Assembly (NCBI GenBank): GCA_965216565.1
Contig: OZ244170.1
Span: forward strand, 2,432,001 to 2,496,000
From: Bythopirellula sp.
GTDB taxonomy: Bacteria; Planctomycetota; Planctomycetia; Pirellulales; Lacipirellulaceae
DNA length: 64,000 nt
Direction of reading: 5' to 3'
Both the position numbers and the translations under genes were made by a program. Of the stretch, positions 1,550 through 31,831 are shown in pieces. The first letter of the stretch is position 1, and each line of letters starts with the position of its first letter. The notes under the pieces are model-generated. The model was not told where the DNA came from. It worked only from the letters and a program-made list of their open reading frames with translations, and searched no databases.

Positions 1550-1563
1550 TATTAGTACCCTAA

Positions 1564-3279: not shown

Positions 3280-3304
3280 GTATTGATCCTAGTAAAGACG
3301 GTTA

Positions 3305-4540: not shown

Positions 4541-4576
4541 AGGGTCCCATCGAATGGCAAAGCCTCGGCGCTCCGA

Positions 4577-5329: not shown

Positions 5330-5368
5330 TTATTTCGCCTTGTGAATCGAAGTAAGTGTGTCACTTGC

Positions 5369-6280
5369 TCAGGCAAGCCAACTCTTGAGCACTTTCAGAT
5401 CTCGTCGTAGTGCATCGATGTTATCCTGAGTCGATCCCTTTTTTAGGTATTCAACATGCAAGGAAATAGGACCCGAGAAATTATCCTCTTTGACGATATC
5501 AAAGAAATCGGGATTGACCCTACCTTCGCCCAGGGGAACATGCTCCGCTTTTTTGCCTTCCCATTGGAAGTCTTTGACGTAGAGAGCTCCGATATGTGGC
5601 TTAATCACGTCGTAGAGCACCGGCCAGGAGAGGCCGGCTTCAATCGTGGCGTGGCGAATGTCGAACGCAACGCTAATCTGATCGGCAGGTACGCCATTCA
5701 AGAGTAAATGCAGATCCCAGATCGTAGCACCGACAAATTTCGCATCGGAGTGATTCTGATAGAGTGCGCTGATCCCCAGATCTTTGTTCATTGCTGCCAG
5801 ATCATTGAGTCCCGGCCGAATGTCTTCGATTTGCTTTAGAATCGGTTTCGTGAGATCGTACTTGTAAAAGCCCATTCGGTAACTCTTGATGCCCAAATCG
5901 ACAGCAGTACGTAGGACCTTTTCAGTAAGAGGTTGGTCTGGTGTCAGGACATCCGAGGCCATGGTCGTGACCTCCAAGTCCCTCTTGTTGAGAGCCTCGA
6001 CCATCTTGGGCAGATCTTCTTCCACATTCTCTGGCAGAACATGACCGCCATTGCGGACGGTGGCTTCGACACCCACAAATCCCAACTCAGCGATGGTATC
6101 TGCCAACTCGTCATAAGAAAGATCCTGCAGAAATTTTGTGAATGCACAAATCCTGTAGTTGGTCGCTTCATGTTCATGAGCAAGGGCCGAAAGCCCTCCC
6201 AACATTGTGCTGGCGGCCGCACCTGCGACTGCTCTGGAGACAAATTCCCGCCGATCGATACCGCATTTAGCGATGTTCAC
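5369..6280 (-). CDS. Tat-exported sugar phosphate isomerase/epimerase (xylose-isomerase-like TIM barrel)
   Basis: DRREFV Tat motif; YQNH, FDIRH, YVKD, VPLGEG and SLHVE metal-ligand-type motifs. Confidence 0.8.
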   Translation of the reverse strand: MNIAKCGIDRREFVSRAVAGAAASTMLGGLSALAHEHEATNYRICAFTKFLQDLSYDELADTIAELGFVGVEATVRNGGHVLPENVEEDLPKMVEALNKRDLEVTTMASDVLTPDQPLTEKVLRTAVDLGIKSYRMGFYKYDLTKPILKQIEDIRPGLNDLAAMNKDLGISALYQNHSDAKFVGATIWDLHLLLNGVPADQISVAFDIRHATIEAGLSWPVLYDVIKPHIGALYVKDFQWEGKKAEHVPLGEGRVNPDFFDIVKEDNFSGPISLHVEYLKKGSTQDNIDALRRDLKVLKSWLA

Positions 6281-15107: not shown

Positions 15108-16268
15108 ATGTATCACGTCGCCCTGCTAGTTGAGACATCTCGAGAGTACGCTCGCGGGCTTCTTCGAGGAATCGCTCGTTATCATCAGGAGGTCGGCCCT
15201 TGGTCCATCTTCTTCGAGCCGCATGGCTTACACGATCCTCCGCCGGCATGGCTTAAAAGCTGGAAGGGCGACGGAATCCTGGCCCGAATCGATGATCAGC
15301 GGATGTGCGACGCGATATTGGAAACAGGCATTCCGGCGGTCGACCTGCGCGGGGCTCTCCAAGACATTCCCTTGCCGTTTATTGGTGTCGATAATCGCCC
15401 CGTTTCCAAACTGGCATTCGAGCATCTACTAGACTGCGGGCTACGAAATTTTGCATTCTGCGGCACGCCCCAAGGAGAGAATCCGAATCAAGACCTAAGG
15501 CGAGATTACTTCAAGGAACGAGTCGAACAAGCCGGTTACGAGTGCAGCGTGTTTCTCGGCAAAGGTCGAAAGACGCGTTCCCAATCCTGGGAAACACAGC
15601 AACAACACATTGTGGAATGGCTCAAAGAGCTTCCGAAACCGGTCGGAATCATGACCTGCCACGACGATCGAGGGCATGAGGTACTCGATGCCTGTCGACG
15701 GGCGGATTTGGTTGTCCCCGACGAGGTTGCTGTGATTGGCGTGGACAATGACACCTATCTCTGCAATCTGAGTACGCCGCCGCTAAGCAGCATCGACGTC
15801 AATTCTAGCCGTATTGGCTACGAAGCGGCCAAAGTGCTACACCACGCGATGGGCGGGGAAAACACGGCCCCTGGTGCCGAATTATTGGGGCCTCCCCGAG
15901 GCATTGCTGCCCGGCAGTCTACCGACATGCTATCGGTCGAAGACGAAGACGTGGCCTCGGCAATTCGCTATATCCGCGAGCATGCGGTCGAGGGCATCCA
16001 GGTCCGCGACGTTCTAAAACGGGCCAATCGCTCTCCAAGCACGCTGGAGAGAAGGATAAAAAAGCTACTGGGACGCACCATCAAGGCAGAAATCACGCGA
16101 GTACGGCTCTCCCGAGCCAAACTTCTGCTTTGCGAGACGGAACTACCAATCTCAAAAATCGCCCTCCGCACCGGCTTTAGCGAGCCAAAATACTTCTGCG
16201 ACGTGTTCCGCAAGAACGAAGACATGACAGCTAGTGCCTACCGCAATAAGTTCCGGGATCAGATCTGA
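15108..16268 (+). CDS. XylR-type regulator (periplasmic-binding-fold sensor plus AraC HTH)
   Basis: VALLVETSREYARGLLRGI, VPDEVAVIGVDND, PPLSSID, RQSTD and a C-terminal AraC HTH. Confidence 0.9.
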   Translation: MYHVALLVETSREYARGLLRGIARYHQEVGPWSIFFEPHGLHDPPPAWLKSWKGDGILARIDDQRMCDAILETGIPAVDLRGALQDIPLPFIGVDNRPVSKLAFEHLLDCGLRNFAFCGTPQGENPNQDLRRDYFKERVEQAGYECSVFLGKGRKTRSQSWETQQQHIVEWLKELPKPVGIMTCHDDRGHEVLDACRRADLVVPDEVAVIGVDNDTYLCNLSTPPLSSIDVNSSRIGYEAAKVLHHAMGGENTAPGAELLGPPRGIAARQSTDMLSVEDEDVASAIRYIREHAVEGIQVRDVLKRANRSPSTLERRIKKLLGRTIKAEITRVRLSRAKLLLCETELPISKIALRTGFSEPKYFCDVFRKNEDMTASAYRNKFRDQI

Positions 16269-16576: not shown

Positions 16577-18235
16577 ATGTCCCTGATCCAGACCAAGGAT
16601 AGTCGGAACAAGAAAACCGTTCAAAACCGGGTCGCTTTTAAGCCAAAAAGCCTGATCCTTTCGCTCTTAGTTCTATCACTCGTGTTGCTTGTATCTAGCA
16701 GCAGTTCTTTGGCCGTGGTAATCACCGATGGGTTCGGTGACGCTGATCTCGATAATAATGGGGTTATCAATTTCTACGACACCGATGCAGGTGATAGTTG
16801 GTTCGATGATCCCAATATGGTCAATGACAACTTCACTTACGTTCCTGCTTATTTGCAAGATCCCAATGGCAATGGACCAACTAACCCTGAAGTCACTTCC
16901 GCACTCGACGCTGGTGACGTAGGCATCAAATGGTTCCAAATGCGTGGCTTTACTGGGAATAATGATGGCCGTTCGAAGCCAACAGCACGGATCGTTGACG
17001 ACGCTCAAGGTTCGATGATTGAAACCTCGCCAGTCGATCCAAACACAAACGGATTAGGCAAGGCAGCGATCGATTCGGGTTATGCATTGTCGATGAACTC
17101 GCGCGGTAGAGGCAGCTCTGTTGCTGGGTTCTTTGGAGAGAATGTAGCTCTCGGAACCGAACTGGGAGATTCGATCAAAGTCTCCTTCGATTGGCGTATT
17201 TGGCGCGATGCACCTGCACTCAACGCCTTCCTGCAGCCCATCGACGCCGAACTACGCTTTGGTATTTACCAAGACACCGACAATCAAATAGGTTCAGATA
17301 ATGGCTTGGCCGGACGTTCCGAGGACACCAACGGTGACTTTTTTCTTGATCCAGTCGCAGCAACTTGGGGTGAAGAAGAAGGCTGGTTCGAAGGTGGTCA
17401 AGAGGGTGGATTTGGAGACAGTGTCGCTACCGACGAAGTTGGTTCAATCGGCGACGGAGGCTGGTTCGGAGCTGTTACCATCGTAGACCCCAATGGATCG
17501 TTCCCCCCGACTGCCCTTCCGGAAGGGGGAGGATGGAGAGTCCGCGAGGAATCTAACCTGAATGATCCCAACTTTGGCATTAACGACAAGCGAATCCTAC
17601 AAGGCTCGGCCGACGTCGATACAGTCGCCAATCCAAGTGAAGCGAACCCTGGCACAGGAGACTTTGGGCTAACCAACCTCCTGGTAGATAAGGTTTACAA
17701 CTTATCGCTGGAACTCGTGCGAGCGGAGGATCCAAACGGTGCGGCAGCAATCACGGCGCATTTGTCTGCCTTTGCTAAAGACGATCCGAACACGGTCTTT
17801 ACCCTCTCGGGCACCGAACTGTTTACTCAGACCGACCCAAACGTAGACAACGTGTTGCAGTCTGTAGACACTTTCGACTATTTCGCCATCCGCAATACGG
17901 GTACCGATGATTTCGATATGTTGATCGACAACTTCCGATTGGAAACATTCAGTGCTGGAGCTGACAATGCGGATTTCGACGGTGACGGTTTGGTCACGGG
18001 ACTCGATTTCCTCATTCTCCAACAGAACATCGGCCTCAGTGGTCAAACCGACAACAGCAATGGAGATGCTAACGGAGACGGCGTGGTCGGCAGTGCTGAC
18101 ATTGCAATCTATGAAAGCCAATATGGTGCGGCTCCGCCACTTGGTGCCTCGGTCAGTGCCGTCCCAGAACCCTCAACGCTCCTGCTGTTTTTGCTAGGAC
18201 TGTTTGGGCTTAGACCAGTTCGCTTTCGTCTCTGA
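16577..18235 (+). CDS. PEP-CTERM surface protein of unknown function with dockerin-like domain
   Basis: Signal peptide; D/N/G-rich; ADFDGDG/GDANGDG; VPEPSTLLL; AAAGGT RBS-like sequence upstream. Confidence 0.8.
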   Translation: MSLIQTKDSRNKKTVQNRVAFKPKSLILSLLVLSLVLLVSSSSSLAVVITDGFGDADLDNNGVINFYDTDAGDSWFDDPNMVNDNFTYVPAYLQDPNGNGPTNPEVTSALDAGDVGIKWFQMRGFTGNNDGRSKPTARIVDDAQGSMIETSPVDPNTNGLGKAAIDSGYALSMNSRGRGSSVAGFFGENVALGTELGDSIKVSFDWRIWRDAPALNAFLQPIDAELRFGIYQDTDNQIGSDNGLAGRSEDTNGDFFLDPVAATWGEEEGWFEGGQEGGFGDSVATDEVGSIGDGGWFGAVTIVDPNGSFPPTALPEGGGWRVREESNLNDPNFGINDKRILQGSADVDTVANPSEANPGTGDFGLTNLLVDKVYNLSLELVRAEDPNGAAAITAHLSAFAKDDPNTVFTLSGTELFTQTDPNVDNVLQSVDTFDYFAIRNTGTDDFDMLIDNFRLETFSAGADNADFDGDGLVTGLDFLILQQNIGLSGQTDNSNGDANGDGVVGSADIAIYESQYGAAPPLGASVSAVPEPSTLLLFLLGLFGLRPVRFRL

Positions 18236-18369
18236 TAGTTTAGCAGTTATCCAGAGGCGCTATTAAGTTTGTATTTTTGTTTAACAGGAAGAAGCAATTG
18301 TAGTTATTCAAATTTTCTTGTTCACAACGTGTGTTGTTGTGGACGCCTTTTCCTTGGGAGGTAGATCTA

Positions 18370-19635
18370 ATGAAGTGTGCTCCTAGTATCAAAGTGAGAA
18401 TGCCTAGAGTGATCGCACTGGTTGCGTTGACCACGCTCTTTGCATACTCGGCAACTGCTTCGTGGGCAGTTGTAATTAAAGACGGATTCGGTGATGGCGA
18501 CCGGAATAATGACGGCGTAATTGGCTTCTACGACACGGACGTCAACCTGAGTGATACGTTTAATCAAACGACCGGCGATCCTAACAATCCAGGTCCAGAT
18601 GAGACGATCAATAACAAGGGTCTCATTGAGGTCACTTCCGCTGAAGATGCAAGCGATGTAGGCATCGTTTGGTCCGCCACTCGTGGATTTACCAGCAGCA
18701 ATTCGGGAGATCCTAAGGCCAACTTGAAGATCGTCAACGATAACGTTCCTACCGGAAGCGAAACCAACGCATGGATTCATGGCAATGGATACGCACTTGG
18801 TTACGAAGCCAAGGGTACGGGCAGCTCCATGATTGGTGCATTTGGCCAGTCTGTAGCTATCGGTCCTAATATTGGGAACCGTATTCGAGTTTCGATCGAC
18901 ATGCGTTTCTGGATCGAATCTAACAATCCAACTGGTCTCGCTAATCCTGGTGAAATCCGTTGGGGCTTGTTCCAAGATACTGACAACGAACTCGGCACGT
19001 TCGACAACGCCGGCAAAGTAGACCCAAATTCTGGAATTCAAGCTTCGGTCGAATGGGGTGCAGAAGATGGTGATTGGCGTTCCAACTCACCTGGTCCTGA
19101 AGGTGACAAGGGTATTTGGACAGAAATTAACACAGGTCCAAACGCCAATGCCGCTGACATGCGTATTAAGTTCGAGAACAACGTCGCTGGCATCAATGGC
19201 ACCAGCAACAATGGTCGTTTCCTCGAAGGTAGCGGTGCCAGCAATACGGTTGGTTCCGGCGGCGATGTTGGTACTGTCGCTTCGCCTTCCGGCGATGGCC
19301 CTGGTGGCACGATTGCAACCATTGGAACACATACGCTAACGATGGACTTCATCCGCGTCGAAGATCCTTCTGACCCGAACAACACACTTGTTCAGGTTGC
19401 AAGCTTTGTAGACGGTAATGAGTTGTTGAGAGATGAAATCAAACCTGGTGATACGGGTGCAGCCATTTTGCAGCCAGCTCCAGAGAGTTTTGATTACATT
19501 GCTCTTCGCAATTCGAGTGGCGACGTTGACTATGTATTTGACAACTTCGTGATTCGCAACTTGGTTCCAGAGCCAACTTCCCTGCTGCTAGTTAGCATGG
19601 GCGGTTTTGCTCTATTGGGTTATCGACGTCGATAA
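18370..19635 (+). CDS. PEP-CTERM surface protein, paralog of 16577-18235
   Basis: GGAGG RBS before ATG 18370. Shares AVVI.DGFGD, EVTSA.DA.DVGI.W, QDTDN and FDY.A.RN blocks with the upstream gene. VPEP...YRRR. Confidence 0.8.
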   Translation: MKCAPSIKVRMPRVIALVALTTLFAYSATASWAVVIKDGFGDGDRNNDGVIGFYDTDVNLSDTFNQTTGDPNNPGPDETINNKGLIEVTSAEDASDVGIVWSATRGFTSSNSGDPKANLKIVNDNVPTGSETNAWIHGNGYALGYEAKGTGSSMIGAFGQSVAIGPNIGNRIRVSIDMRFWIESNNPTGLANPGEIRWGLFQDTDNELGTFDNAGKVDPNSGIQASVEWGAEDGDWRSNSPGPEGDKGIWTEINTGPNANAADMRIKFENNVAGINGTSNNGRFLEGSGASNTVGSGGDVGTVASPSGDGPGGTIATIGTHTLTMDFIRVEDPSDPNNTLVQVASFVDGNELLRDEIKPGDTGAAILQPAPESFDYIALRNSSGDVDYVFDNFVIRNLVPEPTSLLLVSMGGFALLGYRRR

Positions 19636-19737: not shown

Positions 19738-19848
19738 AACTTCAGAGAACGCAACTTTGTTATGCTTCGTGTTGCGGTTGGGGCTTCGGGGAAATACCGA
19801 GTCTTCTAGGTACCCCCTTATTATTTCATTTTTGTGGAGATATCGACG

Positions 19849-20886
19849 ATGCGTGGTTTTGCCTTATCGAAGAACAAAGGATGCTCTGCGAATAGAGGAT
19901 TCACTCTAGTCGAGCTTCTTGTAGTGATCGCAATCATTGGCGTTTTGGTAGCGTTATTGCTACCGGCAGTCCAGGCTGCCCGCGAAGCGGCAAGACGCAT
20001 GCAATGTACCAATAACGTAAAGCAGTTGATCCTTGCCGATCTCGGGTATGAAGATTCCAAGGGCAATCTCGTTCCAGCGCGACTAGGACCCGATGGTACC
20101 GGTTCCCCAGAAGTCCGACACCTTAGATATAAGACCGATCGTTCCGGAGCAAGCGGATTTGTGTTGTTGTTACCTTACTTGGAACAAAGCTCTCTCTTTG
20201 ATCAATTCGATGTGTATAAGAACAACAGCATCTTTCCGTCGGACCAAGTAGGTAACGAACCAGGGACTTCAAACTGGAGAACATTGGCTCGCATGCAAGC
20301 CATTGGAGTTCGACCAGATTTTATCGCATGCCCCTCCTCAGGTGATGAACCTCAAACCCAGATAAAATCCTATCAAAGTTGGGACGTCGTTCCTGCTACT
20401 GGCAACTACGCCTTCATGGGAGGGCATCGCGGGCCCAATGGTCAAAACCCAGTTAACGCTTGTTTAACAAAACACCATAATACGGGTGCTCACTTGTATT
20501 GGACTACCAATACCCTTAAGGAGATTGAGGATGGAACTTCAAATACAATCTCCATTGGAGAAGTGATTGATAGTCATACACGTAACAGCTCTAACATTTG
20601 GACCTATGTCCTTCGTTACGCCGACTCCTTCCGCGTGACTGATGTTGCCGTCAATACTCCACCGGGAGTTGAAGCCAAGCGCGTTGGTTCTAACGCTGCT
20701 GTTGTGAACGGCGCATTTCAAAGTCGCCATCCTGGGGGTGCTGTATTCGGTTACCTTGATGGACATGTGATCTTTGTTGACGAAGGTATCGGTACGGTTG
20801 AGTATCAGAATTTATCTACTATCGCCGGTGAACCTCGCTTCAATGACATCGACGACGAGCAATTTTGCTCAGAAAACAGATACTAA
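19849..20886 (+). CDS. DUF1559 prepilin-type N-terminal cleavage/methylation protein
   Basis: GFTLVELLVVIAIIGVLVALLLPAVQAAREAARR, DGTSNT and SRHPGG...YLDGHV (H-X9-DG). Confidence 0.92.
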   Translation: MRGFALSKNKGCSANRGFTLVELLVVIAIIGVLVALLLPAVQAAREAARRMQCTNNVKQLILADLGYEDSKGNLVPARLGPDGTGSPEVRHLRYKTDRSGASGFVLLLPYLEQSSLFDQFDVYKNNSIFPSDQVGNEPGTSNWRTLARMQAIGVRPDFIACPSSGDEPQTQIKSYQSWDVVPATGNYAFMGGHRGPNGQNPVNACLTKHHNTGAHLYWTTNTLKEIEDGTSNTISIGEVIDSHTRNSSNIWTYVLRYADSFRVTDVAVNTPPGVEAKRVGSNAAVVNGAFQSRHPGGAVFGYLDGHVIFVDEGIGTVEYQNLSTIAGEPRFNDIDDEQFCSENRY

Positions 20887-20935
20887 TGATGTCAAATCAG
20901 CAGGAATAAGTTTTACCTTAAGGCGTTTACAAGAT

Positions 20936-21472
20936 ATGAATTCCTATTTCCGACCGTTTTTTGTGATTGTTGCAGCATGCCAACTGATTGGTTGTCAGGA
21001 AGCTCCTCATCAGAAGTTAATCACTGCATCTGGAACAGTACTTATTGATGGTGAGCCTCTTTCCAGTGGTACGATACGTTTCGTGCCCGAAAAAGGTCGT
21101 CCCATGAATAGTGCGATATTGGGAGACGGTTCTTTCCAGCTTGGCTCCAACTCTGTAGCTGATGCGGATGGCGTGGATGGAGTACCCCCCGGCAAATACC
21201 AGGTAGCAATTTCTTCCTCTATTATTGAAGGCGATGAAGGCGATAAGGTCCGCTGGTTAGCTCCCAGGCATTATGCAGACTTTCGTACCTCAGACATCGA
21301 GATCGAGCTTGAAGAATCTACCGACGACCTGCTAATCGAACTCACCTGGGAAGGGGCCGAAGAGGAGTCTGTCGACGAGGGTCCGGAAGATACCGATCCC
21401 TCTGCCGAACAAGACGAGAATTCTGCAGAACCCGAAGATTCTAGTGCTGACGAGCAGACGAAGGAGCAATAG
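20936..21472 (+). CDS. DUF1559-associated small lipoprotein (carboxypeptidase-regulatory-like fold) with acidic tail
   Basis: Lipobox LIGC; SGTVLIDGEPL, DGVPPGKYQV, PRHYAD. Confidence 0.75.
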   Translation: MNSYFRPFFVIVAACQLIGCQEAPHQKLITASGTVLIDGEPLSSGTIRFVPEKGRPMNSAILGDGSFQLGSNSVADADGVDGVPPGKYQVAISSSIIEGDEGDKVRWLAPRHYADFRTSDIEIELEESTDDLLIELTWEGAEEESVDEGPEDTDPSAEQDENSAEPEDSSADEQTKEQ

Positions 21473-21473
21473 G

Positions 21474-21947
21474 TTGTCTACACAAATCCATTCCCACAAT
21501 AGTTCCCTGCCGTACCGCTTTTTTCACAACCAACGATACTCAGCACTGTTGAGTTTCTTGTCTGTGTTGATATTGCTTTCCGCCGGTTGTGGCGACGGGC
21601 GGCCCGCACGAGTAACGGTCTCCGGGCAAGTGCTCATTGATGGCAAACCTTTGCAGCAGGGCAATATTAAGTTCGTTCCGGAAGGCGCACGACCCTCTGC
21701 GGGAACAATCGATGAGGATGGTCGTTTTACCCTGACATGCTTTGACGGCAACGACGGCGTGATACCAGGAACTCATCGAGTGCAAATCTCAGCTAGTGAG
21801 ATCCTGGACAACAGCAAGGTGAAATGGTGGGCGCCTCGAAAGTACTCGGACTTTCGCACCTCTGAACTCGAGTTCGTAATAAACGAACCCACCGACGACC
21901 TAACAATTGAACTTACCTGGGATGGCGGCAAGCCATTTGTAAAGTAG
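21474..21947 (+). CDS. DUF1559-associated small lipoprotein, paralog of the upstream gene
   Basis: AAGGAG RBS then TTG at 21474; lipobox SAGC; SGQVLIDGKPL, DGVIPGTHRV, DFRTS, TDDLTIELTW shared with the neighbour. Confidence 0.75.
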   Translation: MSTQIHSHNSSLPYRFFHNQRYSALLSFLSVLILLSAGCGDGRPARVTVSGQVLIDGKPLQQGNIKFVPEGARPSAGTIDEDGRFTLTCFDGNDGVIPGTHRVQISASEILDNSKVKWWAPRKYSDFRTSELEFVINEPTDDLTIELTWDGGKPFVK

Positions 21948-21964: not shown

Positions 21965-24268
21965 ATGGACTCTAGCACCACAGGAATACGACGAGCGCAA
22001 TTTGCGATTGCTGCGTTGGTGCTAACAATTGTACTGCAGCCTAATTCGCATGCTGCTGACTTTTTTGTGACTAATATCTCCCAACTAAACACAGCAGTTG
22101 GCAATGCCGTGGCGGGTGATACGATCACCATGCAGGATGGCAATTGGACGAACAATAACGTCAGCTTCGCAACGGATGGCGATCCGAATAACCCGATTAC
22201 TCTACGAGCCGAAACTCCAGGGCAGGTGATTCTTAATGGGTCGTCAACTCTCGATATCTCTGGCGATTGGTTGGTGGTCGATGGCTTGCGGTTCGAAGGA
22301 GGTGCGCTCTCCGACGGTTCGAACGCTATCGTTGAATTTCGGGGTTCCAATGGCGAGGCCACGAATAGCCGCTTCACCAACTCAGCGATCATCGGCTATA
22401 ACCCAGCCAACATTAACGACCGTTATCATTGGGTCGAAATGTTTGGCACCAATAACCGCGTTGATAACAACCGGTTCGAAGATCACAACCATTCGGGCGT
22501 GACCGTAGTAGTACGGCGTGACGACACTGGCGCCGACAATCACCTGATCGATCAAAATCACTTCGTCGACCGTCCTGAAGGGAACGGCAACGGCTGGGAG
22601 ACGATCCGCGTTGGAACGAGTACCGAATCATTGAGCAACTCGTTTACTACAGTAGAAAATAATCTGTTTGAGCGTGTTGACGGTGAAATCGAGATCATCT
22701 CGAGCAAATCTGGTGAAAATATTTACCGTTACAATACGTTCCGCGAATCAAAAGGAACCCTCACCCTCCGTCATGGAAACGACAATTTGGTAGAAGGCAA
22801 TTTCTTTCTTGGCTTAGGCAAAGATGGTAGTGGGGGCGTCCGCGTCATCGGTGAGCGGCAGACGGTCGTCAACAACTATATTGGAGCTGTTGACGACCGC
22901 GCCGATGGAGCAATTTCGATCTCGGCCGGGGTGCAAGGATCGGCTGTCAACGAGTATTTCCAGGTCAAAGACGCTGTCATCGCTCACAATACGATCGTCG
23001 CCACTTCCGATGCCATGATCACCTTTGATCATGGCTTGGGTAGTAGTGGTCGGACGTTACTCGCAGAGAATGTGACTATTGACAACAACCTCTTCTTTAG
23101 CAATGGCTCGACTATTTTTGAGGGCACCGAAGGCACAGGTTGGAGTTGGGCCGGTAATATCGCTTTCGGAGGGAGTCTTGGTCCCAAGGCCGGGGTCCCG
23201 TCCGGTGAGATTAATGTGGTTAATCCTCAGATGCAGTTCGAGACTTCGACTGGTCTTTGGCGGCTGAGTTCAACCAGCCCGGCTATTAATGCCAGCCCCG
23301 TTGACTACAGCAGTACTATTTCCCACGACATGGATGGCCAGGCCCGTATTGGTGTTTTGGATGTCGGTGCTGATGAGTTTTCCGCCACCACAATTGTCCG
23401 CAAGCCATTTGTCGCGGGCGATGTCGGTCCTGGTTGGTTCTTTGACCCCAATGGCGGGGGCGATCCGAACAATGGAAACGGTGGGGGAGGGGGTTGCATT
23501 GCCAGAGGTTGCGCCATTCAGGCTGAAGACTATACCTCGATTCTCGATCCTGATAGCAATGGGCTGACATGGTCTACCATTTCCGATCCTAATGCTCTCG
23601 GCGGCCAAGCGCTACAAGCGCCGAATGGCGATCGGGTGGAGCTGCCCCAAGAATTACACGATACGATCGCCGTCTATGACTTAACCTTCGAGCAAGCAGG
23701 CACCTACCGGGCCTATTATCGAGCTAAGGGAGATGGCGGCAGTACTGATAGCATATTTGTTCCCGACGATTTCAACGTTGACCCAGACAACAACGAGTCC
23801 ACATCTAGTAACAATAAATTCCGCTGGGAAGTGGGAGACACGTTTACCATTTCCGCCGGCAATGTCGGTGTACCCTTGGAGTTTCGCATCGGAATGCGCG
23901 AACAGAATAACGTTTTTGATGCACTAGTGCTCGATCTTGACTTGTCCTTGTCAGCTTCAGAATTAAACGCCTTGTTCGATATTACCATCGTAGAAGCCGA
24001 TTTCGACGAGGATGGTGACGTAGACCACGACGACTTGCTAGCCTGGGAGACCGGATATGGGACATCCTCAGCCGCCACTCATATGGATGGCGATGCCAAT
24101 GGAGATGGAGCCGTCAATGGGCTCGATTTTTTGATGTGGCAAGAGCAATACACGGGTTCCAGTGCCCCGCTTTCTGGCCTTTCGCAAGTTCCCGAACCTT
24201 CATCAGCAGTGTTAGTCATGCTGTTTGCACTTAGCCTAAATGTACATATAAGAAACAGAAAGCCATAG
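21965..24268 (+). CDS. PL6 polysaccharide lyase (alginate lyase/chondroitinase B fold) with accessory beta domain, dockerin-like domain and PEP-CTERM
   Basis: PITLRAETPG, GNGWETIRVGTS, GEIEIISSKS, GTLTLRHG, GGVRVIG (PL6 signatures); VPEP C-terminus. Confidence 0.9.
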   Translation: MDSSTTGIRRAQFAIAALVLTIVLQPNSHAADFFVTNISQLNTAVGNAVAGDTITMQDGNWTNNNVSFATDGDPNNPITLRAETPGQVILNGSSTLDISGDWLVVDGLRFEGGALSDGSNAIVEFRGSNGEATNSRFTNSAIIGYNPANINDRYHWVEMFGTNNRVDNNRFEDHNHSGVTVVVRRDDTGADNHLIDQNHFVDRPEGNGNGWETIRVGTSTESLSNSFTTVENNLFERVDGEIEIISSKSGENIYRYNTFRESKGTLTLRHGNDNLVEGNFFLGLGKDGSGGVRVIGERQTVVNNYIGAVDDRADGAISISAGVQGSAVNEYFQVKDAVIAHNTIVATSDAMITFDHGLGSSGRTLLAENVTIDNNLFFSNGSTIFEGTEGTGWSWAGNIAFGGSLGPKAGVPSGEINVVNPQMQFETSTGLWRLSSTSPAINASPVDYSSTISHDMDGQARIGVLDVGADEFSATTIVRKPFVAGDVGPGWFFDPNGGGDPNNGNGGGGGCIARGCAIQAEDYTSILDPDSNGLTWSTISDPNALGGQALQAPNGDRVELPQELHDTIAVYDLTFEQAGTYRAYYRAKGDGGSTDSIFVPDDFNVDPDNNESTSSNNKFRWEVGDTFTISAGNVGVPLEFRIGMREQNNVFDALVLDLDLSLSASELNALFDITIVEADFDEDGDVDHDDLLAWETGYGTSSAATHMDGDANGDGAVNGLDFLMWQEQYTGSSAPLSGLSQVPEPSSAVLVMLFALSLNVHIRNRKP

Positions 24269-24295
24269 AAACCGTTGCTAAAAGGAAACAAACAG

Positions 24296-25666
24296 ATGCC
24301 CTCAGACAAATCAAAACCAGTTACGTCGGATCGTCGCGAGTTTTTCAAGAAATCTGCTCTCGCGGCAGCGGCGGTCGCTCCCTACTACGTTTCCGCCTCA
24401 GCTTTCGGTGCAAACGCACCGAGCAACCGGATCACCATGGCCTGTATTGGTGTCGGCAATCAAGGTTTTCCGGTCATGAAACGATTTCTCTCCTACGACG
24501 ACTGCCAGGTAGTCGCCGTCTGCGACGTCAATCGGGGCAGCAATGGCTACAAGGATGACAAGCATTTTTATGGTCGAGAGCCAGCCAAGAAAGAGGTGGA
24601 GAAGCAGTACGGCAAGAGAAAAGACTCGGGCTCCTTCAAAGGCTGTGACGCCTATAACGATTTTCGAGAAATCATTGAGCGAGATGACATCGATACGGTT
24701 GTAATTGCCGCTCCTGATCATTGGCATAGCGAGATGACCGTGCGTGCCGCTGAGTCGGGCAAAGACATCTATTGCGAGAAGCCACTCGGGCTCACCATTG
24801 GTGATCAGCAAGCCATGGTGAATGCCGTCAAGAAGAACGACGTCATTCTGCAAACCGGTAGCCACGAACGCTCCAATCCCAATGTCCGCAAGCTAGTTGA
24901 ACTCGTTCAGAGTGGGGCACTCGGAGAGATTAAACGCGTTATCTGCAATGTGGGACGCCACAACATGATCGGCCCCGGTCCCGGCTGGAAAGAAATGCCA
25001 GTTCCGGACGGATTCGATTACGACATGTGGTTGGGCCCCGCGCCAGACGCCCCTTATCACAAGGATCGATGCCTGTACCGTTTCCGCTTTATCTACGACT
25101 ATGCCGGCGGCCAGGTCACCAACTTCGGTGCCCATTCACTGGACATGGCCCAATGGGGTTTAGGCATGGACAAATCCGGTCCCGTTCACGTGAAACCGAG
25201 ATATGCACAATTCCTTCCCGAAGGCAGTCTATTCAATGCTGCTCTGTTTACTCACTTTGTTTGCAAGTACAGCAATGGAGTGGAAGTTGAATGTGTGACG
25301 GGTGAACCCGCTGTCCGTTGTCAATTTGAAGGCACCGAAGGAATTGCCCGAATTGACAATCAAGGTCGCGAATTTGTATCGATTCCCGAGAGTATCAAGA
25401 ATTCGAAATTTGGCACCGATACTCCGGAAATCTACAAGAGCAACGATGATCATCAGAGAAACTTCCTCGACTGTGTAAAGTCGCGAGAAGAACCCAACGC
25501 GTCTGTCGAAGTTGGTCATCGCAGCGCTACCGTGTGTCACTTGGGCAATATCGCCTTGCGTCTCAATAAAGAACTAGATTGGGATCCAGATGCCGAGAAG
25601 TTCGAAGGTAGTGAAGAGGCAAATTCCATGATCAATCGTCCCACTCGCAAGTCCTGGCACGTTTAA
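24296..25666 (+). CDS. Tat-exported Gfo/Idh/MocA oxidoreductase
   Basis: DRREFFKK Tat motif; CIGVGNQG, PDHWH, DIYCEKP, YDMWLGPAP, FGAHSLD. Confidence 0.9.
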   Translation: MPSDKSKPVTSDRREFFKKSALAAAAVAPYYVSASAFGANAPSNRITMACIGVGNQGFPVMKRFLSYDDCQVVAVCDVNRGSNGYKDDKHFYGREPAKKEVEKQYGKRKDSGSFKGCDAYNDFREIIERDDIDTVVIAAPDHWHSEMTVRAAESGKDIYCEKPLGLTIGDQQAMVNAVKKNDVILQTGSHERSNPNVRKLVELVQSGALGEIKRVICNVGRHNMIGPGPGWKEMPVPDGFDYDMWLGPAPDAPYHKDRCLYRFRFIYDYAGGQVTNFGAHSLDMAQWGLGMDKSGPVHVKPRYAQFLPEGSLFNAALFTHFVCKYSNGVEVECVTGEPAVRCQFEGTEGIARIDNQGREFVSIPESIKNSKFGTDTPEIYKSNDDHQRNFLDCVKSREEPNASVEVGHRSATVCHLGNIALRLNKELDWDPDAEKFEGSEEANSMINRPTRKSWHV

Positions 25667-25736: not shown

Positions 25737-27197
25737 TTGAAACAAGAGCAACTCAAGCAGTCTTCGGCATCGTCATCTGTCAGCGCAAAGCCTACAGACA
25801 TTCGTCTGCGAGGAGCAGAACTCTATTTTCTCCCAGTAGAGACCCGCATCCCGCTGAAATTCGGCACTGAGACTCTTACTTCTGTTACTTGCGCAAGGGT
25901 TAGAGTTATTGTCGAAGATAGAGAAGGGCGTCTCGCCAGTGGATGGGGCGAAACTCCGCTCAGCGTCCAATGGGTCTGGCCAAGTGACGTGCCTTACGCA
26001 ACTCGTCACAACGCACTCAAGGATTTCTGCGAACAGCTGACCTCTGCCTGGGCCTCATTTTCGTCCTTCGGCCACCCGCTAGAACTCGGCTATGAATTTC
26101 AGCAAACGATTCTTCCTACGCTGCTAGGTGGTTTCAATCGCGACTGCGAAGCTGAGGAACGCATCCCTAAGCTTGCTTCCCTGTTGTGCTGCTCGCCCTT
26201 CGACATCGCGCTTCACGATGCTTTTGGCGTGATGCACGATATCTCTGTCTACGATTCATACACGGAACAATACCTCAGCCGGGACCTGGCAAGCTACTTA
26301 GAGCCGACTGAGGGCGAACCGAACCCGTTCGTAGGCAAATATCCTTCCGATTACTTATCGAAGAATCCAAAACAAAGCCTTCCCGTTTGGCATCTGGTGG
26401 GAGGCCTTGATCCTCTGGATGATTCGCAGCTCAACGGCAACAAAGTGGACGATGGCGAGCCGTATCTGCTGAGCGACTGGATTCGTCGGGATGGGATTAA
26501 TTGTTTGAAAGTGAAACTTCGGGGCAATGACGCCCAATGGGATTATCAACGAATCGTTCAGGTAAGTGAGATTGCTTCGGAATTTGGCCCCTACACGCTA
26601 AGCACAGACTTTAATTGCACCGTAACGGATCCTCAGTATGTAAACGACATTCTAGATCGACTGTCTGCAGAGCATCCGGATTCCTTTAAGTCGATCCTCT
26701 ATGTAGAACAACCGTTTCCGTACGATCTCGAATCCTACAGAATCGACGCACATAGCGTGTCAGAGCGAAAGCCATTGTTGATGGACGAAAGCGCCCACAC
26801 ATGGGAATACGTCCGATTGGGCCGAGAGTTTGGCTGGGATGGGGTCGCTCTGAAAACTTGCAAAACCCAAACAGGGGCCATTCTGATGCTTTGTTGGGCC
26901 AAAGCGCATGGCATGCACGTGATGGTGCAAGACTTGACGAATCCCATGTTGGCTCAAATCCCGCATGTTCTGCTTGCCGCCAACGCGGATACCATGATGG
27001 GAGTAGAATCCAACGCGATGCAATTCTACCCGCGTGCATCCCTGCCCGAAGCGAAGGTGCATCCGGGTCTGTATCAACGCCGCAAAGGCGTGCTCGATCT
27101 CTCTACTCTCAGTGGCCCTGGATTTGGTTATCGAGTTGATGAAATTCAGCGCACTCTCGGCAAACCTGTTGCCCGCTTCGGCATCGCTGCCGTCTGA
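25737..27197 (+). CDS. Enolase-superfamily (mandelate racemase/MLE-like) enzyme
   Basis: GWGETPL, KVK, DFN, YVEQP, MDES metal-ligand pattern, ALKTCK. Start uncertain (TTG). Confidence 0.8.
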   Translation: MKQEQLKQSSASSSVSAKPTDIRLRGAELYFLPVETRIPLKFGTETLTSVTCARVRVIVEDREGRLASGWGETPLSVQWVWPSDVPYATRHNALKDFCEQLTSAWASFSSFGHPLELGYEFQQTILPTLLGGFNRDCEAEERIPKLASLLCCSPFDIALHDAFGVMHDISVYDSYTEQYLSRDLASYLEPTEGEPNPFVGKYPSDYLSKNPKQSLPVWHLVGGLDPLDDSQLNGNKVDDGEPYLLSDWIRRDGINCLKVKLRGNDAQWDYQRIVQVSEIASEFGPYTLSTDFNCTVTDPQYVNDILDRLSAEHPDSFKSILYVEQPFPYDLESYRIDAHSVSERKPLLMDESAHTWEYVRLGREFGWDGVALKTCKTQTGAILMLCWAKAHGMHVMVQDLTNPMLAQIPHVLLAANADTMMGVESNAMQFYPRASLPEAKVHPGLYQRRKGVLDLSTLSGPGFGYRVDEIQRTLGKPVARFGIAAV

Positions 27198-27221
27198 TCT
27201 ATATAACCTGGGAGAGAGAGC

Positions 27222-29921
27222 ATGGGCGCTCGAACTGTATTCTTGGCCTTGTTGGCCTTCTTGCTTAGTTACTGCTGCAATTCAGCATCGCAAGCGGCCG
27301 AGCTTGGTACCGTCTATTGGGAATCGGCCCATCTCTTAAACGTAAAAGAGCGTTCTGCGCATCCCGATCAAGAGCTAAAGCAGAGTCTTGATCTCCTGGA
27401 ATCGAATGCAGAGTTGGCTCTCCGGCGGGGGCCTTATTCCGTAATGGATAAGAAGGAAGTGCCTCCCAGCGGCGATAAGCACGACTACATGAGCTTCAGC
27501 CGGTACTGGTGGCCCAATCCCGAGACTGAAGACGGTTTGCCATACATTAGGAAAGATGGCCAAGTGAACCGCAAGCTTCGTCAAAGGGGAGATCGTGATC
27601 GCGTCGGCATGCTGATGGAAGATGTCGAGACTTTATCGTTAGCGGCCTTCCTCTTGGAAAAAGAATCCTTCGCTAATCACGCGACGAAACTCATCCGGGT
27701 TTGGTTTCTCGATCCAAAAACACGGATGAACCCCAACCTAAAATATGGCCAAGCTGTGCCTGGTCGCTCTGTTGGACGCGGCGTTGGCATCATCGACACT
27801 CGCGGGTTCCTAAAAATCTTGGACGCGGTCGCTCTACTGAGTTCAATGGATGCGATTGAAGAAACCGAAGTGGCGCAACTTCGCGAGTGGTTCTCGGAAT
27901 ATCTCGACTGGCTCCTGACGAGTGAACTTGGCATTGATGAAGCCGCTCGCGAGAACAACCACGGCTCTTGGTATAGAGCACAGACCGCCAGGATCGCGCT
28001 ATTTGTTGGCAAGAAGGACACGGCATCGGAAATCGTCGAGAAGATCCGTCAAAAACGTATTGCAATGCAGTTTGAACCCGACGGGAGCCAACCGGAAGAA
28101 TTGGCGCGGACCCAATCTCTGCACTATAGCCTCTTCAACCTTAGTGCCCTATCGGTGGCAGCACGAGTAGGTGAGCATCTCGGCTTAGATCTTTGGAGCT
28201 CAGAAAACGGCGACAGTCTGCGGCCGGGAATCGACTTCTTATTGCCTTACTTAAACAAGAAAGAAAAGTGGCCGCACCCACAAATACACGATTACTCTAT
28301 GTCTCGTGGAACCGTTAATTTGCTGCGAATGGCCTCGATTCGTTATGACGATACAAAATATCTGGAGCCGATCAGCGAGAATAGCATCCGCCATCCTGAG
28401 TTCAATTACGCGGAGCTGTTGTTTCGCAAAAAAGATGGTTCCGACAAAACGCCTCGAGACACACGGATCGAAATCTCCACAAATCAGAAAGTTGGCAAGC
28501 CGAAGTACGATCTGCCAGACATTTCGGGGTTTACCAGGGAAAGTATCAAGGAGATGGTTCCAACTGAAAGGGAAGGGACCGCACAAGTAGGACCAACAGC
28601 AGGCGAAGCAATCCTCCGCGAGACCTTCCGCAAAGATCGTCTCAAAGACATGCAACAGAGACAGGGGACGAAATCAACTCAAGCCATCAAGTTGAGCGCC
28701 GGTGCTGTTTCTCTCCAGGATGTCGTATTGCAAATTGACAACGAGGAGATTATCTCTTCTGCTGCAGGCGTGGTTACGGTGCGGCTTCCCATTTTAATCG
28801 AGGCAGACGCCGCGTTGATTGTCGAGGGAGCATCGACCAAGGAAGTCCGATTATCGACAGATAGAGGGGCCTTAATCGCTAACGCTGGTCGGCTGTTCAT
28901 TCTGGATACGCAAGTCACGTCTTGGGATGAGCAATCGGGTTCGCCTACCGAGTGGAAAAGTAAAGAAAACTTCCGCCCATTTATCTCCTCGTATATCCGC
29001 TCCCAAACATTTCTGTCCGGCAGTGAATTTGTAAACTTGGGCTACCATGCGCCCACTTCTTACGGCCTGAGCCTGTCGAGCCAACCAGAACGCGAAGACC
29101 CGACCAAGAGAGCGCAATGGCCAACTGGCATCCTTGTCGACAACGAGTTCCGAGGTTTGTACTACGGCTTTTACTCGTATGAAGCGCGGGCTGTGAAGAT
29201 CATTGGCAACACCTATACCGACTGCATTCTGTACGGCATCGATCCTCACGATCGTTCCACCGAACTCGTCATTGCTCGAAACACTGCGACGGGTACGTTG
29301 GAGAAACACGGCATTATTGGCTCGCGTGGCATCAGCAACAGTTTTATCTTCGAGAACGTCTCCCATGACAATCACGGATCGGGAATCATGCTCGATCGCC
29401 AGTGCAAAGGAAACATTGTTTGCAACAATAAGGTATTCAACAACGGGCAGGGAATCGCAATTTACGAAAGCCGCGGCAACATCATCGCTGAAAACATGGT
29501 GGTGCAGAACAAGAAGTCAGGAATCCGAGTCCGCAATAGCCAAGGGACCGTTGTTGTGGAAAACGAAATTGTGGCGAACGGCGACTATGGGTTGGAGATC
29601 TATGCAAAGCAGCTCGACGATCATGCCAAACGCATGAAGCGAGGAGACTTATACGACGATTTCGTCTCGGTTTCTGTTTTCGGAAACGTGGTTGTGGGAA
29701 ATCAGGGAGGTATTGTCAAAGGCAATAACGTCTCCTATTTGGCAATGCGAGACATTCAAACTAAGACTAATCTAGACCAACTCGAAGCGAGTACGGGGCT
29801 AGCAAGTATCTCTCTCTACGACCAGGAAGACACTAGCTTTGGAAGCGAACTCAAGCAGTACTCTTCGCAGCTCGACCAGGTATTCGACGACTCACTTCCC
29901 TTAGTAGAGCTGCGACGATAA
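27222..29921 (+). CDS. Secreted fusion: alginate-lyase (PF05426, PL38-like) domain plus AlgG-like mannuronan C5-epimerase beta-helix
   Basis: N-half: PPSGDKHDYMS..YWWPNP..DGLPYIRKDG, NNHGSW, ELARTQSLHYS. C-half: YYGFYSYEA, YGIDPHDRS, KHGIIGSR, SGIMLDR. Confidence 0.85.
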   Translation: MGARTVFLALLAFLLSYCCNSASQAAELGTVYWESAHLLNVKERSAHPDQELKQSLDLLESNAELALRRGPYSVMDKKEVPPSGDKHDYMSFSRYWWPNPETEDGLPYIRKDGQVNRKLRQRGDRDRVGMLMEDVETLSLAAFLLEKESFANHATKLIRVWFLDPKTRMNPNLKYGQAVPGRSVGRGVGIIDTRGFLKILDAVALLSSMDAIEETEVAQLREWFSEYLDWLLTSELGIDEAARENNHGSWYRAQTARIALFVGKKDTASEIVEKIRQKRIAMQFEPDGSQPEELARTQSLHYSLFNLSALSVAARVGEHLGLDLWSSENGDSLRPGIDFLLPYLNKKEKWPHPQIHDYSMSRGTVNLLRMASIRYDDTKYLEPISENSIRHPEFNYAELLFRKKDGSDKTPRDTRIEISTNQKVGKPKYDLPDISGFTRESIKEMVPTEREGTAQVGPTAGEAILRETFRKDRLKDMQQRQGTKSTQAIKLSAGAVSLQDVVLQIDNEEIISSAAGVVTVRLPILIEADAALIVEGASTKEVRLSTDRGALIANAGRLFILDTQVTSWDEQSGSPTEWKSKENFRPFISSYIRSQTFLSGSEFVNLGYHAPTSYGLSLSSQPEREDPTKRAQWPTGILVDNEFRGLYYGFYSYEARAVKIIGNTYTDCILYGIDPHDRSTELVIARNTATGTLEKHGIIGSRGISNSFIFENVSHDNHGSGIMLDRQCKGNIVCNNKVFNNGQGIAIYESRGNIIAENMVVQNKKSGIRVRNSQGTVVVENEIVANGDYGLEIYAKQLDDHAKRMKRGDLYDDFVSVSVFGNVVVGNQGGIVKGNNVSYLAMRDIQTKTNLDQLEASTGLASISLYDQEDTSFGSELKQYSSQLDQVFDDSLPLVELRR

Positions 29922-30082
29922 CCTCTTGGTCACGTTTTATCTGCATCAAAAAGGTGGGGATTCTGTTCCCACTTGTGCTTCCTTGAGCGGCTCTTCAATC
30001 GCAACCTGCTTGAGTTGTAAGAGCGGCCGGCATCTTACGGCTTGCCAGTGGCTGTTGGCCACAATATCTGGTCAGCGCTGGC

Positions 30083-30116: not shown

Positions 30117-31304
30117 ATGATTGGTCACGTCGATGCCGACTGTTTTTACGTTTCTGCCGAGCGCGTTCGCTACCCGCACCTCAAGGGGATGCCGGTGGCC
30201 GTGCTGGGCAACCACGGTGCATGCGTCATTGCTAAGAGTTACGAAATGAAGGCCGCAGGTGTGCCAACCGGCGGCGCTATCTGGGAGGCGGTGCCAATCT
30301 GTCCTGAAGCGGTTTTCGTCAAGCGTGACTTCAAATGGTACGAGACTCTCTCACGACAAATGCTGGCGATCGTTCAGGAAGTCAGCCCCCAGGTGGAGTT
30401 CTATTCTATCGATGAGCAGTTTTTCAAAGCCATGGAACCCAATCATGGATTTGCCGAGCGATTGCAAGACGACGTGCTTCGTCGCGTGGGCGTACCGGTT
30501 TCGATTGGTATTGCGCCCACTAAGACGCTAGCCAAACTGATCTCCGACTCATCCAAACCCTTCGGCTGTGGGGTGGTAACCGATGACACCGAGCGGATCG
30601 AACTGCTGCGCAATACGCCCGTTTCAGAAGTGACTGGCATTGCCCGCCGGCGAGCCCAACATTTGGCCGATCATGGAATTCATACCTGCGAACAATTTGC
30701 GAATGCCGACCGGGCGTTCATTCGCTGGCTCCTCACCAAGAGTGGCGAAGACTTATGGTGGGAGCTCAACGGCACGCCGGTGATCCCAGTTCAGGTGAAG
30801 CGGCCCGAAAACAAATTCATCGCCCGCGGCGGATCCATTGGCCGAGCCAGTTGCGATCGTCAGCGGATCCAGGCCTTTATTGTTCGCAACGTGGAACGGC
30901 TAGTCGAAGCCCTGGCATATTACAAAGTCGCGTGCGATCAACTAACCTTGTCGCTACTATTTACAGAGTTCCCCGAGCGATCTGTACGAAGTAGCCTGCT
31001 AGGGAGCCGTGCCGATTTCGAAGCCCTACTAGAAGCCGCCCTATATTTGCTCCCCCAAGCATGGCAGCCTCCCTCGGCTAGCGTCCACTATATGCATGTC
31101 ATTGCCGGCAAGTTGCGGCCCATTGCTCAACGGCAACGGAGCTTATTTGACGAGTCGAAGCTGGCAGACATCAAGCACAACATCAATAATGAGGTAGGTC
31201 GCTTCGCACTACGTAGTGCAGCCACCTTGCCCCTGGTAGACGTCTACGGCGATTGTGCCAACAACTATGACATCTGCGACATCTACGGTAAAAGTTGTTT
31301 TTGA
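30117..31304 (+). CDS. Y-family translesion DNA polymerase (UmuC/DinB-like)
   Basis: HVDADCFYVS, SYEMK, YSIDE and SIGIAPTKTLAKL motifs intact; SLF clamp-binding-like motif near the C-terminus. Confidence 0.9.
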   Translation: MIGHVDADCFYVSAERVRYPHLKGMPVAVLGNHGACVIAKSYEMKAAGVPTGGAIWEAVPICPEAVFVKRDFKWYETLSRQMLAIVQEVSPQVEFYSIDEQFFKAMEPNHGFAERLQDDVLRRVGVPVSIGIAPTKTLAKLISDSSKPFGCGVVTDDTERIELLRNTPVSEVTGIARRRAQHLADHGIHTCEQFANADRAFIRWLLTKSGEDLWWELNGTPVIPVQVKRPENKFIARGGSIGRASCDRQRIQAFIVRNVERLVEALAYYKVACDQLTLSLLFTEFPERSVRSSLLGSRADFEALLEAALYLLPQAWQPPSASVHYMHVIAGKLRPIAQRQRSLFDESKLADIKHNINNEVGRFALRSAATLPLVDVYGDCANNYDICDIYGKSCF

Positions 31305-31354
31305 TTCCTAGAATATCAACCGCTAACTCCTACCCCCCAACCCAAAATAAGCCC

Positions 31355-31831
31355 ATGTGCAAAGGCATCTCAATTACACGCGCCCGCATCCGTCAGGAAC
31401 TTTTCGAGCAGTACGAACTGGCACACCGCATTGCCACTCGCGGTGCCGATGCCCAAGAAGAATTACACTTTATGTATCCTGGCGCTCCACCAATCGAGTT
31501 GCCCGTGATCGATGGCGGGGATCTGGCTGTTTACGAATGGGGGAATCGCAACAACAAAGAGTCGAAGCTACCGAGTACCGGCTGGTGCCGGATCGAAAGC
31601 CTGGAGGCCGGCAAGTGGCGTTGGCTACGACCAGAAAAAGTAACGATCCCCGCCGACTTTGGCTTAGAGAAATCAGTGTGGTTTGCCATCGAAGAAGGCA
31701 TGGAGGGCATTCTTGTCCGCGACGAACAGGAACGGCCACACGTGTACATGCTCACCCAAGCGGCCAGCACCTATTACGAAAACATGACGCGCCACAACCG
31801 CATGCCGATTTTGCTGGGCCAGGATATTTGA
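31355..31831 (+). CDS. Divergent SRAP (YedK/HMCES)-like protein
   Basis: MC N-terminus (Cys2) from ATG 31355, a WG motif and C-terminal HNRMPILL; directly follows the Y-polymerase. Confidence 0.55.
   Translation: MCKGISITRARIRQELFEQYELAHRIATRGADAQEELHFMYPGAPPIELPVIDGGDLAVYEWGNRNNKESKLPSTGWCRIESLEAGKWRWLRPEKVTIPADFGLEKSVWFAIEEGMEGILVRDEQERPHVYMLTQAASTYYENMTRHNRMPILLGQDI

Follow-up and report, generated by a model that had tools for sequence, protein, structure and literature searches.

What does an AlgG-type mannuronan C5-epimerase do when it is joined to an alginate lyase in a planctomycete, in a locus that appears to serve alginate degradation? Published accounts assign AlgG to alginate biosynthesis in producer organisms (PMC4444821, PMC12269086). 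The question is raised by a stretch of Bythopirellula sp. DNA of 64,000 nucleotides (contig OZ244170.1, assembly GCA_965216565.1, positions 2,432,001 to 2,496,000; the window), in which the open reading frame (ORF) at 27222 to 29921 on the plus strand encodes a PL38 lyase-AlgG-type C5-epimerase fusion of 899 aa. We propose, with a probability of roughly 0.55, that this protein acts as a catabolic epimerase, converting slowly cut mannuronate (M) blocks to a guluronate (G)-containing chain for its own PL38 domain and for a PL6 lyase encoded nearby. Both domains are known already; what appears new is their combination and, if the proposal holds, the changed biological role.

The 899 codons run without interruption and are preceded by a purine-rich ribosome-binding site, GGGAGAGAG, ahead of the ATG, in agreement with a first-pass annotation of the window that had reported a single ORF here. 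The motif positions given there were also right: N246-H247 lie at 27957 to 27962 (NNH from 27954), Y671 of YGIDPHDRS at 29232, and K695-H696 at 29304 to 29309. Read by eye, the ORF opens with a Sec-type signal peptide (27222 to 27299) that is probably cleaved behind ASQA, near aa 25-26; the predicted model has a helix at residues 2 to 18, and most fused homologues have a hydrophobic, variable N-terminus. Then follow a PL38 (alpha/alpha)7 lyase domain (27300 to 28421; Pfam, PDB search, residue alignment, and Foldseek), a variable linker (28422 to 28502, aa ~401-427; alignment and model), and an AlgG-type right-handed beta-helix (28503 to 29921; PDB search, alignment, and Foldseek), all on the plus strand. 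The AlphaFold2 model (58 sequences; predicted local distance difference test [pLDDT] score 90.5, predicted template modeling score 0.65) has the same layout of helical barrel, poorly ordered linker, and long beta-helix. The linker has low pLDDT at 407-412 and is 0 to 33% identical to homologues, a 99%-identical strain protein excepted. The earlier description of the protein as secreted holds as far as crossing of the inner membrane. As this leader is present and a PEP-CTERM-like tail, unlike in the neighboring PL6, is lacking, the periplasm is the probable location; macromolecules accumulate in the planctomycete periplasm (PMC5394234).

The homologue set consisted of the 120 best matches to the C-terminal domain plus the query (121 proteins), and a PL38 domain is also present on 38 of these, including the query and one 99%-identical protein. 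In a search of long proteins, PF05426 was found on 34 known fusions and on 0 of the 86 other proteins listed. A contig from a different study, labeled as an algae metagenome, covers 26900 to 30008 with no joint, and the linker is bridged by a contig from yet a third study; runs X1 and X4, from one sample that is possibly the source of the window, were left out as independent support. With 38 fused proteins and an independent spanning contig, we therefore ruled out an assembly artifact. The strain contig that spans 26900 to 30008 has 18 differences within the ORF (12 silent, 6 missense, no stop). Both domains are under purifying selection, with a proportion of nonsynonymous differences of 0.12 to 0.40 in seven fused genes with DNA, against a synonymous proportion saturated at 0.70 to 0.87. 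Database names for proteins of this kind go no further than alginate lyase, C5 epimerase, or beta-helix protein.

The N-terminal domain is a PL38 lyase, as had been read from the sequence at first pass. PF05426 matches aa 73-350 (E = 1.6e-84), the closest PDB sequences over aa 35-386 are 3nfv (E = 2.9e-79) and BoPL38 8bdq (E = 1.8e-65), and the predicted fold superposes on 3nfv with a template modeling (TM) score of 0.87 (0.83 to 0.88 over PL38-type structures). Set against PL5, the domain matched PL38-type structures at E = 4.7e-80 and 3.4e-66 and A1-III at E = 0.0017. Nine BoPL38 residues were examined by mutation (10.1101/2024.12.11.627697), and the fusion has equivalents of all nine: Y95, D112, Q177, E240, N246, H247, R296, H301, and Y302 pair, in the same order and without gaps, with Y91, D108, Q173, E236, N242, H243, R292, H297, and Y298. 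Each is conserved in 36 to 38 of the 38 fused proteins. BoPL38 of Bacteroides ovatus (8BDQ) and BACOVA_01668 (3NFV), which are 31 to 37% identical to this domain, share with it the (alpha/alpha)7 barrel, the nine active-site residues, and an alginate degradation locus with PL6. BoPL38, however, is a single domain whose one active site also provides ~4% epimerase side activity, whereas here a separate epimerase domain is attached. PL38 is multispecific and includes glucuronan lyases; context favors alginate over glucuronan as the likely substrate.

The C-terminal half gives only weak NosD/beta-helix matches in Pfam (E ~1e-15), while aa 428-830 match Pseudomonas syringae AlgG 4nk6 with an E value of 2.6e-83 (phmmer, PDB). 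The fold is likewise that of AlgG (TM 0.93, root mean square deviation 2.4 A, ~36% identity) and not that of the AlgE4 A-module (TM 0.37), which rules out a generic NosD/CASH helix and upholds the AlgG-type identity first suggested by the motifs. An AlgE-type enzyme is not indicated either, with no AlgE match in the PDB at E 0.001 and no RTX family in Pfam. When the D317A mutant 4nk8 is used to fix the AlgG numbering, the catalytic residues Y671, D674, and H676 correspond to Y314, D317, and H319 of AlgG, and D677, R678, K695, H696, R702, D725, R726, and R771 are also present. In AlgG, the His of DPHD abstracts the proton, Tyr314 coordinates water, and an Arg neutralizes charge (PMC4444821). 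The top 62 of the 121 proteins group together as a single clade with a long stem (FastTree support 0.91; Shimodaira-Hasegawa-like approximate likelihood ratio test ~86 in a 66-sequence subset), and Y671, D674, H676, D677, H696, R702, D725, R726, and R771 are invariant in 62/62 members. We take the charge-neutralizing Arg to be R345 of AlgG and R702 of the fusion.

This domain thus shares with 4NK6 the YGIDPHD motif, the surrounding His/Arg/Asp set, and an export signal, but it belongs to a separate clade. It scores 330 bits with the NCBIfam AlgG equivalog NF038177, below the curated cutoff of 700, and clade-specific substitutions occur at, e.g., 612, 624, and 743. The clade has conserved residues of its own, such as R624, H801, and R807, and Thr or Ser at 612 in place of a near-invariant Lys. 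It also differs from AlgG in lying outside an alg operon, fused or adjacent to PL38, in a genome in which no alginate synthase was found.

That no alg biosynthesis genes are visible had been said of the window, and the same was found genome-wide. Searches of the genome (one contig, 94% complete) by tblastn at E 1e-3 with the proteins of two complete alg operons gave no alg8, alg44, algK, algE, algX, algJ, or algF. Hidden Markov models (HMMs) built from 60 to 73 loci found nothing for alg8, algE, algX, algJ, or algF and weak partial matches only for alg44 and algK. Pfam searches of the genome for ALGX and AlgF found nothing, but their controls were also silent, so these searches carry little weight alone. 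Matches resembling algD, algI, and algA (28 to 41% identity) are dispersed along the chromosome. No hidden alg operon was found: a PF13372 match (C1:604721-605863) lies amid Rrf2, 4Fe-4S, NrfD, molybdopterin-oxidoreductase, and NapB genes; this "alginate export" porin adjoins genes of anaerobic respiration. Furthermore, alg8 was found in 0/31 genomes of the family, including all 8 with an AlgG-like domain, while a control genome was positive. In proteobacterial algG loci, by comparison, at least two other alg genes are present in 75/76 and alg8 in 70/76.

How an epimerase could serve degradation is suggested by the kinetics of BoPL38, which turns over polyG at 9.1 per s and polyM at 0.9 per s, has a preference for G-M bonds, and starts on polyM only after a lag, in which its authors see epimerization ahead of cleavage (10.1101/2024.12.11.627697). 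AlgG introduces single G residues (PMC8824271, PMC12269086) and binds at least 9 residues (PMC4444821). Because polyG is cut faster than polyM and AlgG binds a long chain, a tethered AlgG could turn the slow PL38 substrate into a preferred one while chains are still of bindable length. We picture an exported, probably periplasmic enzyme with two active sites, whose target would be foreign (algal) alginate. Its AlgG-type domain would bind a long mannuronate stretch, where His676 would abstract the C5 proton and a proton would be re-added from the opposite face; by single M-to-G conversions, M-blocks would become an MG/G-containing chain. The tethered PL38 would cut this edited chain by beta-elimination (Tyr302/His247), as would the neighboring PL6, and PL38 is expected to be faster on it than on pure M. 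The epimerase requires long chains, which a separate lyase would cut down; fusion would keep both domains at work on one chain. What we infer in this way is that the domain epimerizes, in which direction it does so, that the lyase gains in rate, and where the protein is located.

Several observations weigh against this proposal. BoPL38 cleaves polyM already and has its ~4% epimerase side activity, and the AlgG-type enzyme PmC5A reportedly has lyase activity on the side (cited in 10.1101/2024.12.11.627697). The kinetics are borrowed from a PL38 that is only ~31% identical, from a family that includes glucuronan lyases. Nor did gene content suggest that the domain compensates for missing lyases: across 31 hand-picked genomes, PL7 scored above the cutoff in 1/8 genomes with the domain versus 3/23 without it, and PF07940 in 6/8 versus 11/23. 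An AlgG-like match is absent from 33/41 PL38-carrying genomes of the family, and the domain is therefore accessory. Finally, an Arg linked to lyase activity is found in 14/62 clade members.

That Arg bears on a second explanation, in which the AlgG domain contributes another lyase, either as such or as an AlgE7-like bifunctional epimerase-lyase, and the tandem covers the M-rich chain directly. The lyase activity of AlgE7 is conferred by Arg148, directly ahead of the catalytic Tyr149, and the R148G variant is a near-pure epimerase (PMC8824271). At the equivalent position 670, the 62 clade members have Arg in 14 and Lys in 3. Arg was found nowhere else among the AlgG proteins checked, in overlapping sets (0/59 other matches, 0/79 and 0/80 motifs elsewhere, and 0/83 further motif proteins). 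The clade's own residues R624, H801, and R807 and the Thr/Ser at 612 also count in favor of this reading, and in one family genome (G001, L106:1467-4319) the slot behind PL38 is taken by a fused PL6 lyase. The fusion itself, however, has Leu670, as do 17 of the 38 fused proteins, and its closest relatives have Leu or Val; the AlgE7 switch is thus missing, which supports the proposed epimerase. The R148 rule was derived from AlgE-type enzymes and may not carry over to the AlgG fold; a few biosynthetic operons encode Lys here as well (2/79 and 7/80 motifs). We consider a tandem lyase unlikely for this protein, though likelier than the readings discussed below. The first-pass annotation had offered, as an alternative, that the domain had itself become a lyase; this may hold for the part of the clade with Arg before the Tyr, and Leu670 speaks against it for the fusion, which we predict to be an epimerase with some bifunctional relatives.

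The Arg is present in all six members of the subclade that branches first and in two other groups, so the clade may have started out with it, with a later loss in the window's lineage. We give even odds to a broader history in which a planctomycete lineage recruited AlgG for catabolism, editing stereochemistry at the polymer level for a small set of lyases, and the clade forms a series from lyase-switched forms, with Arg before the catalytic Tyr in convergence with AlgE7, to PL38-fused pure epimerases such as this one.

The conservation of the site also bears on the idea of a noncatalytic role. Polymer formation in Pseudomonas reportedly needs the AlgG protein and not AlgG activity, and a long beta-helix groove is suited to chain binding, so the domain could be an alginate-binding clamp for the lyase that echoes the structural role of AlgG in biosynthesis. 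Against such a clamp, DPHD, Tyr671, His696, and Arg702 are invariant in 62/62 clade members, and 24 members have no PL38 to serve, most of them with a leader-like N-terminus of their own; we consider it improbable. Catalysis by AlgG is reversible, and in a catabolic context the epimerase might instead run backward or scramble the chain, breaking G-blocks and loosening the Ca-crosslinked gel for lyase access. M-to-G directionality is stressed and PL38 is fastest on G in 10.1101/2024.12.11.627697, and the best-matching PL6 structures include G-preferring enzymes, which makes a reversed reaction equally hard to favor.

Fused (38) and unfused (24) proteins are interspersed in the AlgG-like clade, and of the standalone ones, some that lie on short contigs may be fragments. 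A source organism is named for seven members, all planctomycetes (7/7), and the unfused member L024 is on a contig titled Pirellulaceae; the whole clade is apparently planctomycete. Within the window's family, 8/120 genomes have the AlgG-like domain. It is fused to PL38 in 4 and encoded immediately behind PL38 in 2; of the remaining genomes, 1 has it in the PL38 locus at a distance of ~18 kb and 1 has no PL38 close to it. All 8 are among the 41 PL38-positive genomes, and none is among the 79 PL38-negative ones, although related genomes are not independent. The domain was found in 10/401 genomes sampled from the order (7 strong matches, in the window's family, and 3 distant) and in 1/401 sampled from the phylum, the window's own genome. 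The split forms in G097 and G098 are not frameshift errors, as in both the stop codon overlaps the start codon of an AlgG gene that encodes a hydrophobic leader of its own. Recent transfer from Pseudomonas was unsupported: the clade is not nested in Pseudomonas AlgG, although the root of the tree falls on a very long branch and is unreliable, and GC content, overall and at third codon positions (GC3), is like that of neighboring genes.

The genes around the fusion fit a catabolic setting, which the first-pass annotation had proposed and which held wherever context was readable: PL6, a regulator, a kinase, a short-chain dehydrogenase/reductase (SDR), and transporters are present, and homologues of these locus genes surround the domain in 7/7 other family genomes and on 3 metagenome contigs with the fusion. 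Its picture of the neighbors as PL6, KdgK, and SDR was right for the PL6, 3 kb upstream, while the PfkB kinase and the SDR are 22 to 26 kb away in a divergent arm. The genes immediately upstream are instead an enolase (mandelate racemase)-superfamily gene (25737 to 27197, +), 24 bp from the fusion and a conserved upstream partner of PL38, and a Gfo/Idh/MocA oxidoreductase with, by eye, a Tat-like RRxFxK leader (24275 to 25666, +). The PL6 alginate lyase (21965 to 24268, +; best PDB match 7o7a, E = 6.8e-71) has a PEP-CTERM-like tail. Further upstream, and syntenic in relatives, are a DUF1559 prepilin-type protein with two small planctomycete proteins (19834 to 21947, +) and two PEP-CTERM proteins (16577 to 19635, +), behind a XylR-type AraC regulator at the head of this right arm (15108 to 16268, +). 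The divergent arm is headed by a 955-aa protein with a PEP-CTERM-like tail and a pectate-lyase-like beta-helix as a lead only (11792 to 14659, -). At its left end (464 to 6280, -) are the PfkB kinase (464-1549, -; KdgK by inference), two Nramp-like transporters, the SDR (4577-5329, -), and a xylose-isomerase-like TIM barrel.

Among the 120 family genomes, PL38 is found in 41, PL6 in 34, and the enolase gene in 81. At 16 hand-picked loci without an AlgG-like domain, PL38 lies directly behind the enolase gene in 14; enolase-PL38 is therefore the core and AlgG the add-on. In G001 (L106:1467-4319), a PL38 fused to PL6 occupies the slot behind the enolase gene, and a second PL6 is next. The window's own genome has one PL38 and two PL6, the second (52% identical) lying elsewhere in the genome at G000:C1:633333-635201. 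It has no PL7 and no PF07940 (PL15/17-type) match by Pfam; the PL7 search of this genome had a silent control and carries little weight alone, but the search was positive in other genomes. As no PL15/17-type match was found, the enolase-superfamily protein, for which the PDB offers only a distant match (muconate cycloisomerase, E = 1e-7), or the Gfo and TIM-barrel pair may handle the unsaturated oligomers. The pair has a weak, sub-cutoff match to glycoside 3-dehydrogenase. Neither the TIM barrel nor the conserved 955-aa protein matched any PDB sequence. In the Atlas, look-alikes of the 955-aa protein are unnamed pectate-lyase-like clusters (0.98), and the protein is a candidate uncharacterized lyase.

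The locus could also be aimed at another polyuronate, such as beta-1,4-glucuronan, which the domain would epimerize or cleave; PL38 contains glucuronan lyases, and the best PDB matches of the SDR are not DEH reductases. Yet the best structure matches of both PL38 and PL6 are alginate lyases, a PL7 gene lies within ~8 kb of the AlgG-like gene in G116, and the mannuronan-epimerase residues are unaltered, so that we give this idea very little credence. Somewhat similar odds attach to the idea that host alginate is remodeled for the cell's own use, as G-rich gel-forming oligomers for attachment or matrix on algae, and not as food. No synthase would be needed with a host polymer, and one study labeled algae metagenome contains the fusion gene. 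We doubt this strongly, given the fused lyase, the sugar regulator, kinase, SDR, and transporter genes, and the finding that AlgG yields single G residues and no long G-blocks (PMC12269086).

Other enzymes also combine these functions or modules. AlgE7 of Azotobacter vinelandii, AcAlgE2/3, and PmC5A, like the fusion, unite epimerase and lyase in one polypeptide; this group has the Y-G-x-D-P-H motif in common with the fusion, and the AlgE7-type Arg recurs in 14/62 of its relatives. Those enzymes, however, carry out both reactions at one site in alginate producers, whereas the fusion has two sites and two folds in a nonproducer. PsmE of P. syringae (epimerase plus acetylhydrolase module) and AlgX-AlgG fusions (e.g., P0116) similarly join an epimerase to a second alginate-acting catalytic module, but their partner is a (de)acetylation module in a producer, and here it is a lyase in a degrader.

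A lyase-AlgG fusion had been unfamiliar at first pass, and full-text searches, which extended to PMC4432689 and did not cover subscription journals, CAZy, or supplements, yielded no account of such a fusion or of an AlgG acting in catabolism. None appears in the passages searched in the surveys, review, and PL6 paper PMC11890756, PMC13274419, PMC13709232, and PMC12992946. If the proposal is right, a synthase-free AlgG clade in degraders would add "epimerize, then cut" to the routes of marine alginate turnover, and would offer a testable answer to the question of the lyases' epimerase side activity left open by 10.1101/2024.12.11.627697. The natural Arg/Lys/Leu/Val series at one position is a test of the AlgE7 lyase switch in the AlgG fold. 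In practical terms, alginate tailoring or conversion of M-rich seaweed could draw on fused lyase-epimerases and on ~60 AlgG-type enzymes that nature provides in exported form.

Directly downstream of the fusion, a DinB/ImpB-family polymerase and a small gene (30117-31831) have higher GC content; they were not seen next to the locus in relatives, and the strain contigs end loosely in this region. A promoter and terminator scan around the fusion gene gave nothing above chance level, and no RNA dataset for its expression was among the listed holders of the gene. Two clade members, P0021 and P0022, have an N-terminal domain of ~290 aa (cupin-like by eye, with no Pfam match) in place of PL38. L208, L209, and L210, from other Pirellulales families, encode distant AlgG-like beta-helices with YG(I/F)DPHDD in frames of 900 to 1100 aa, a motif that we take to be reminiscent of brown-algal epimerases. 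On a Rhodospirillales contig (L031:8147-11443), two AlgG-type genes stand in tandem with no further alg gene within 10 kb. AlgX-AlgG and TPR-AlgG fusions (P0116, P0125, P0133-P0135, P0075, P0130, and P0183) are from Proteobacteria where a source is named, and the alg operons L126-L128 and L026 have algG in two copies.

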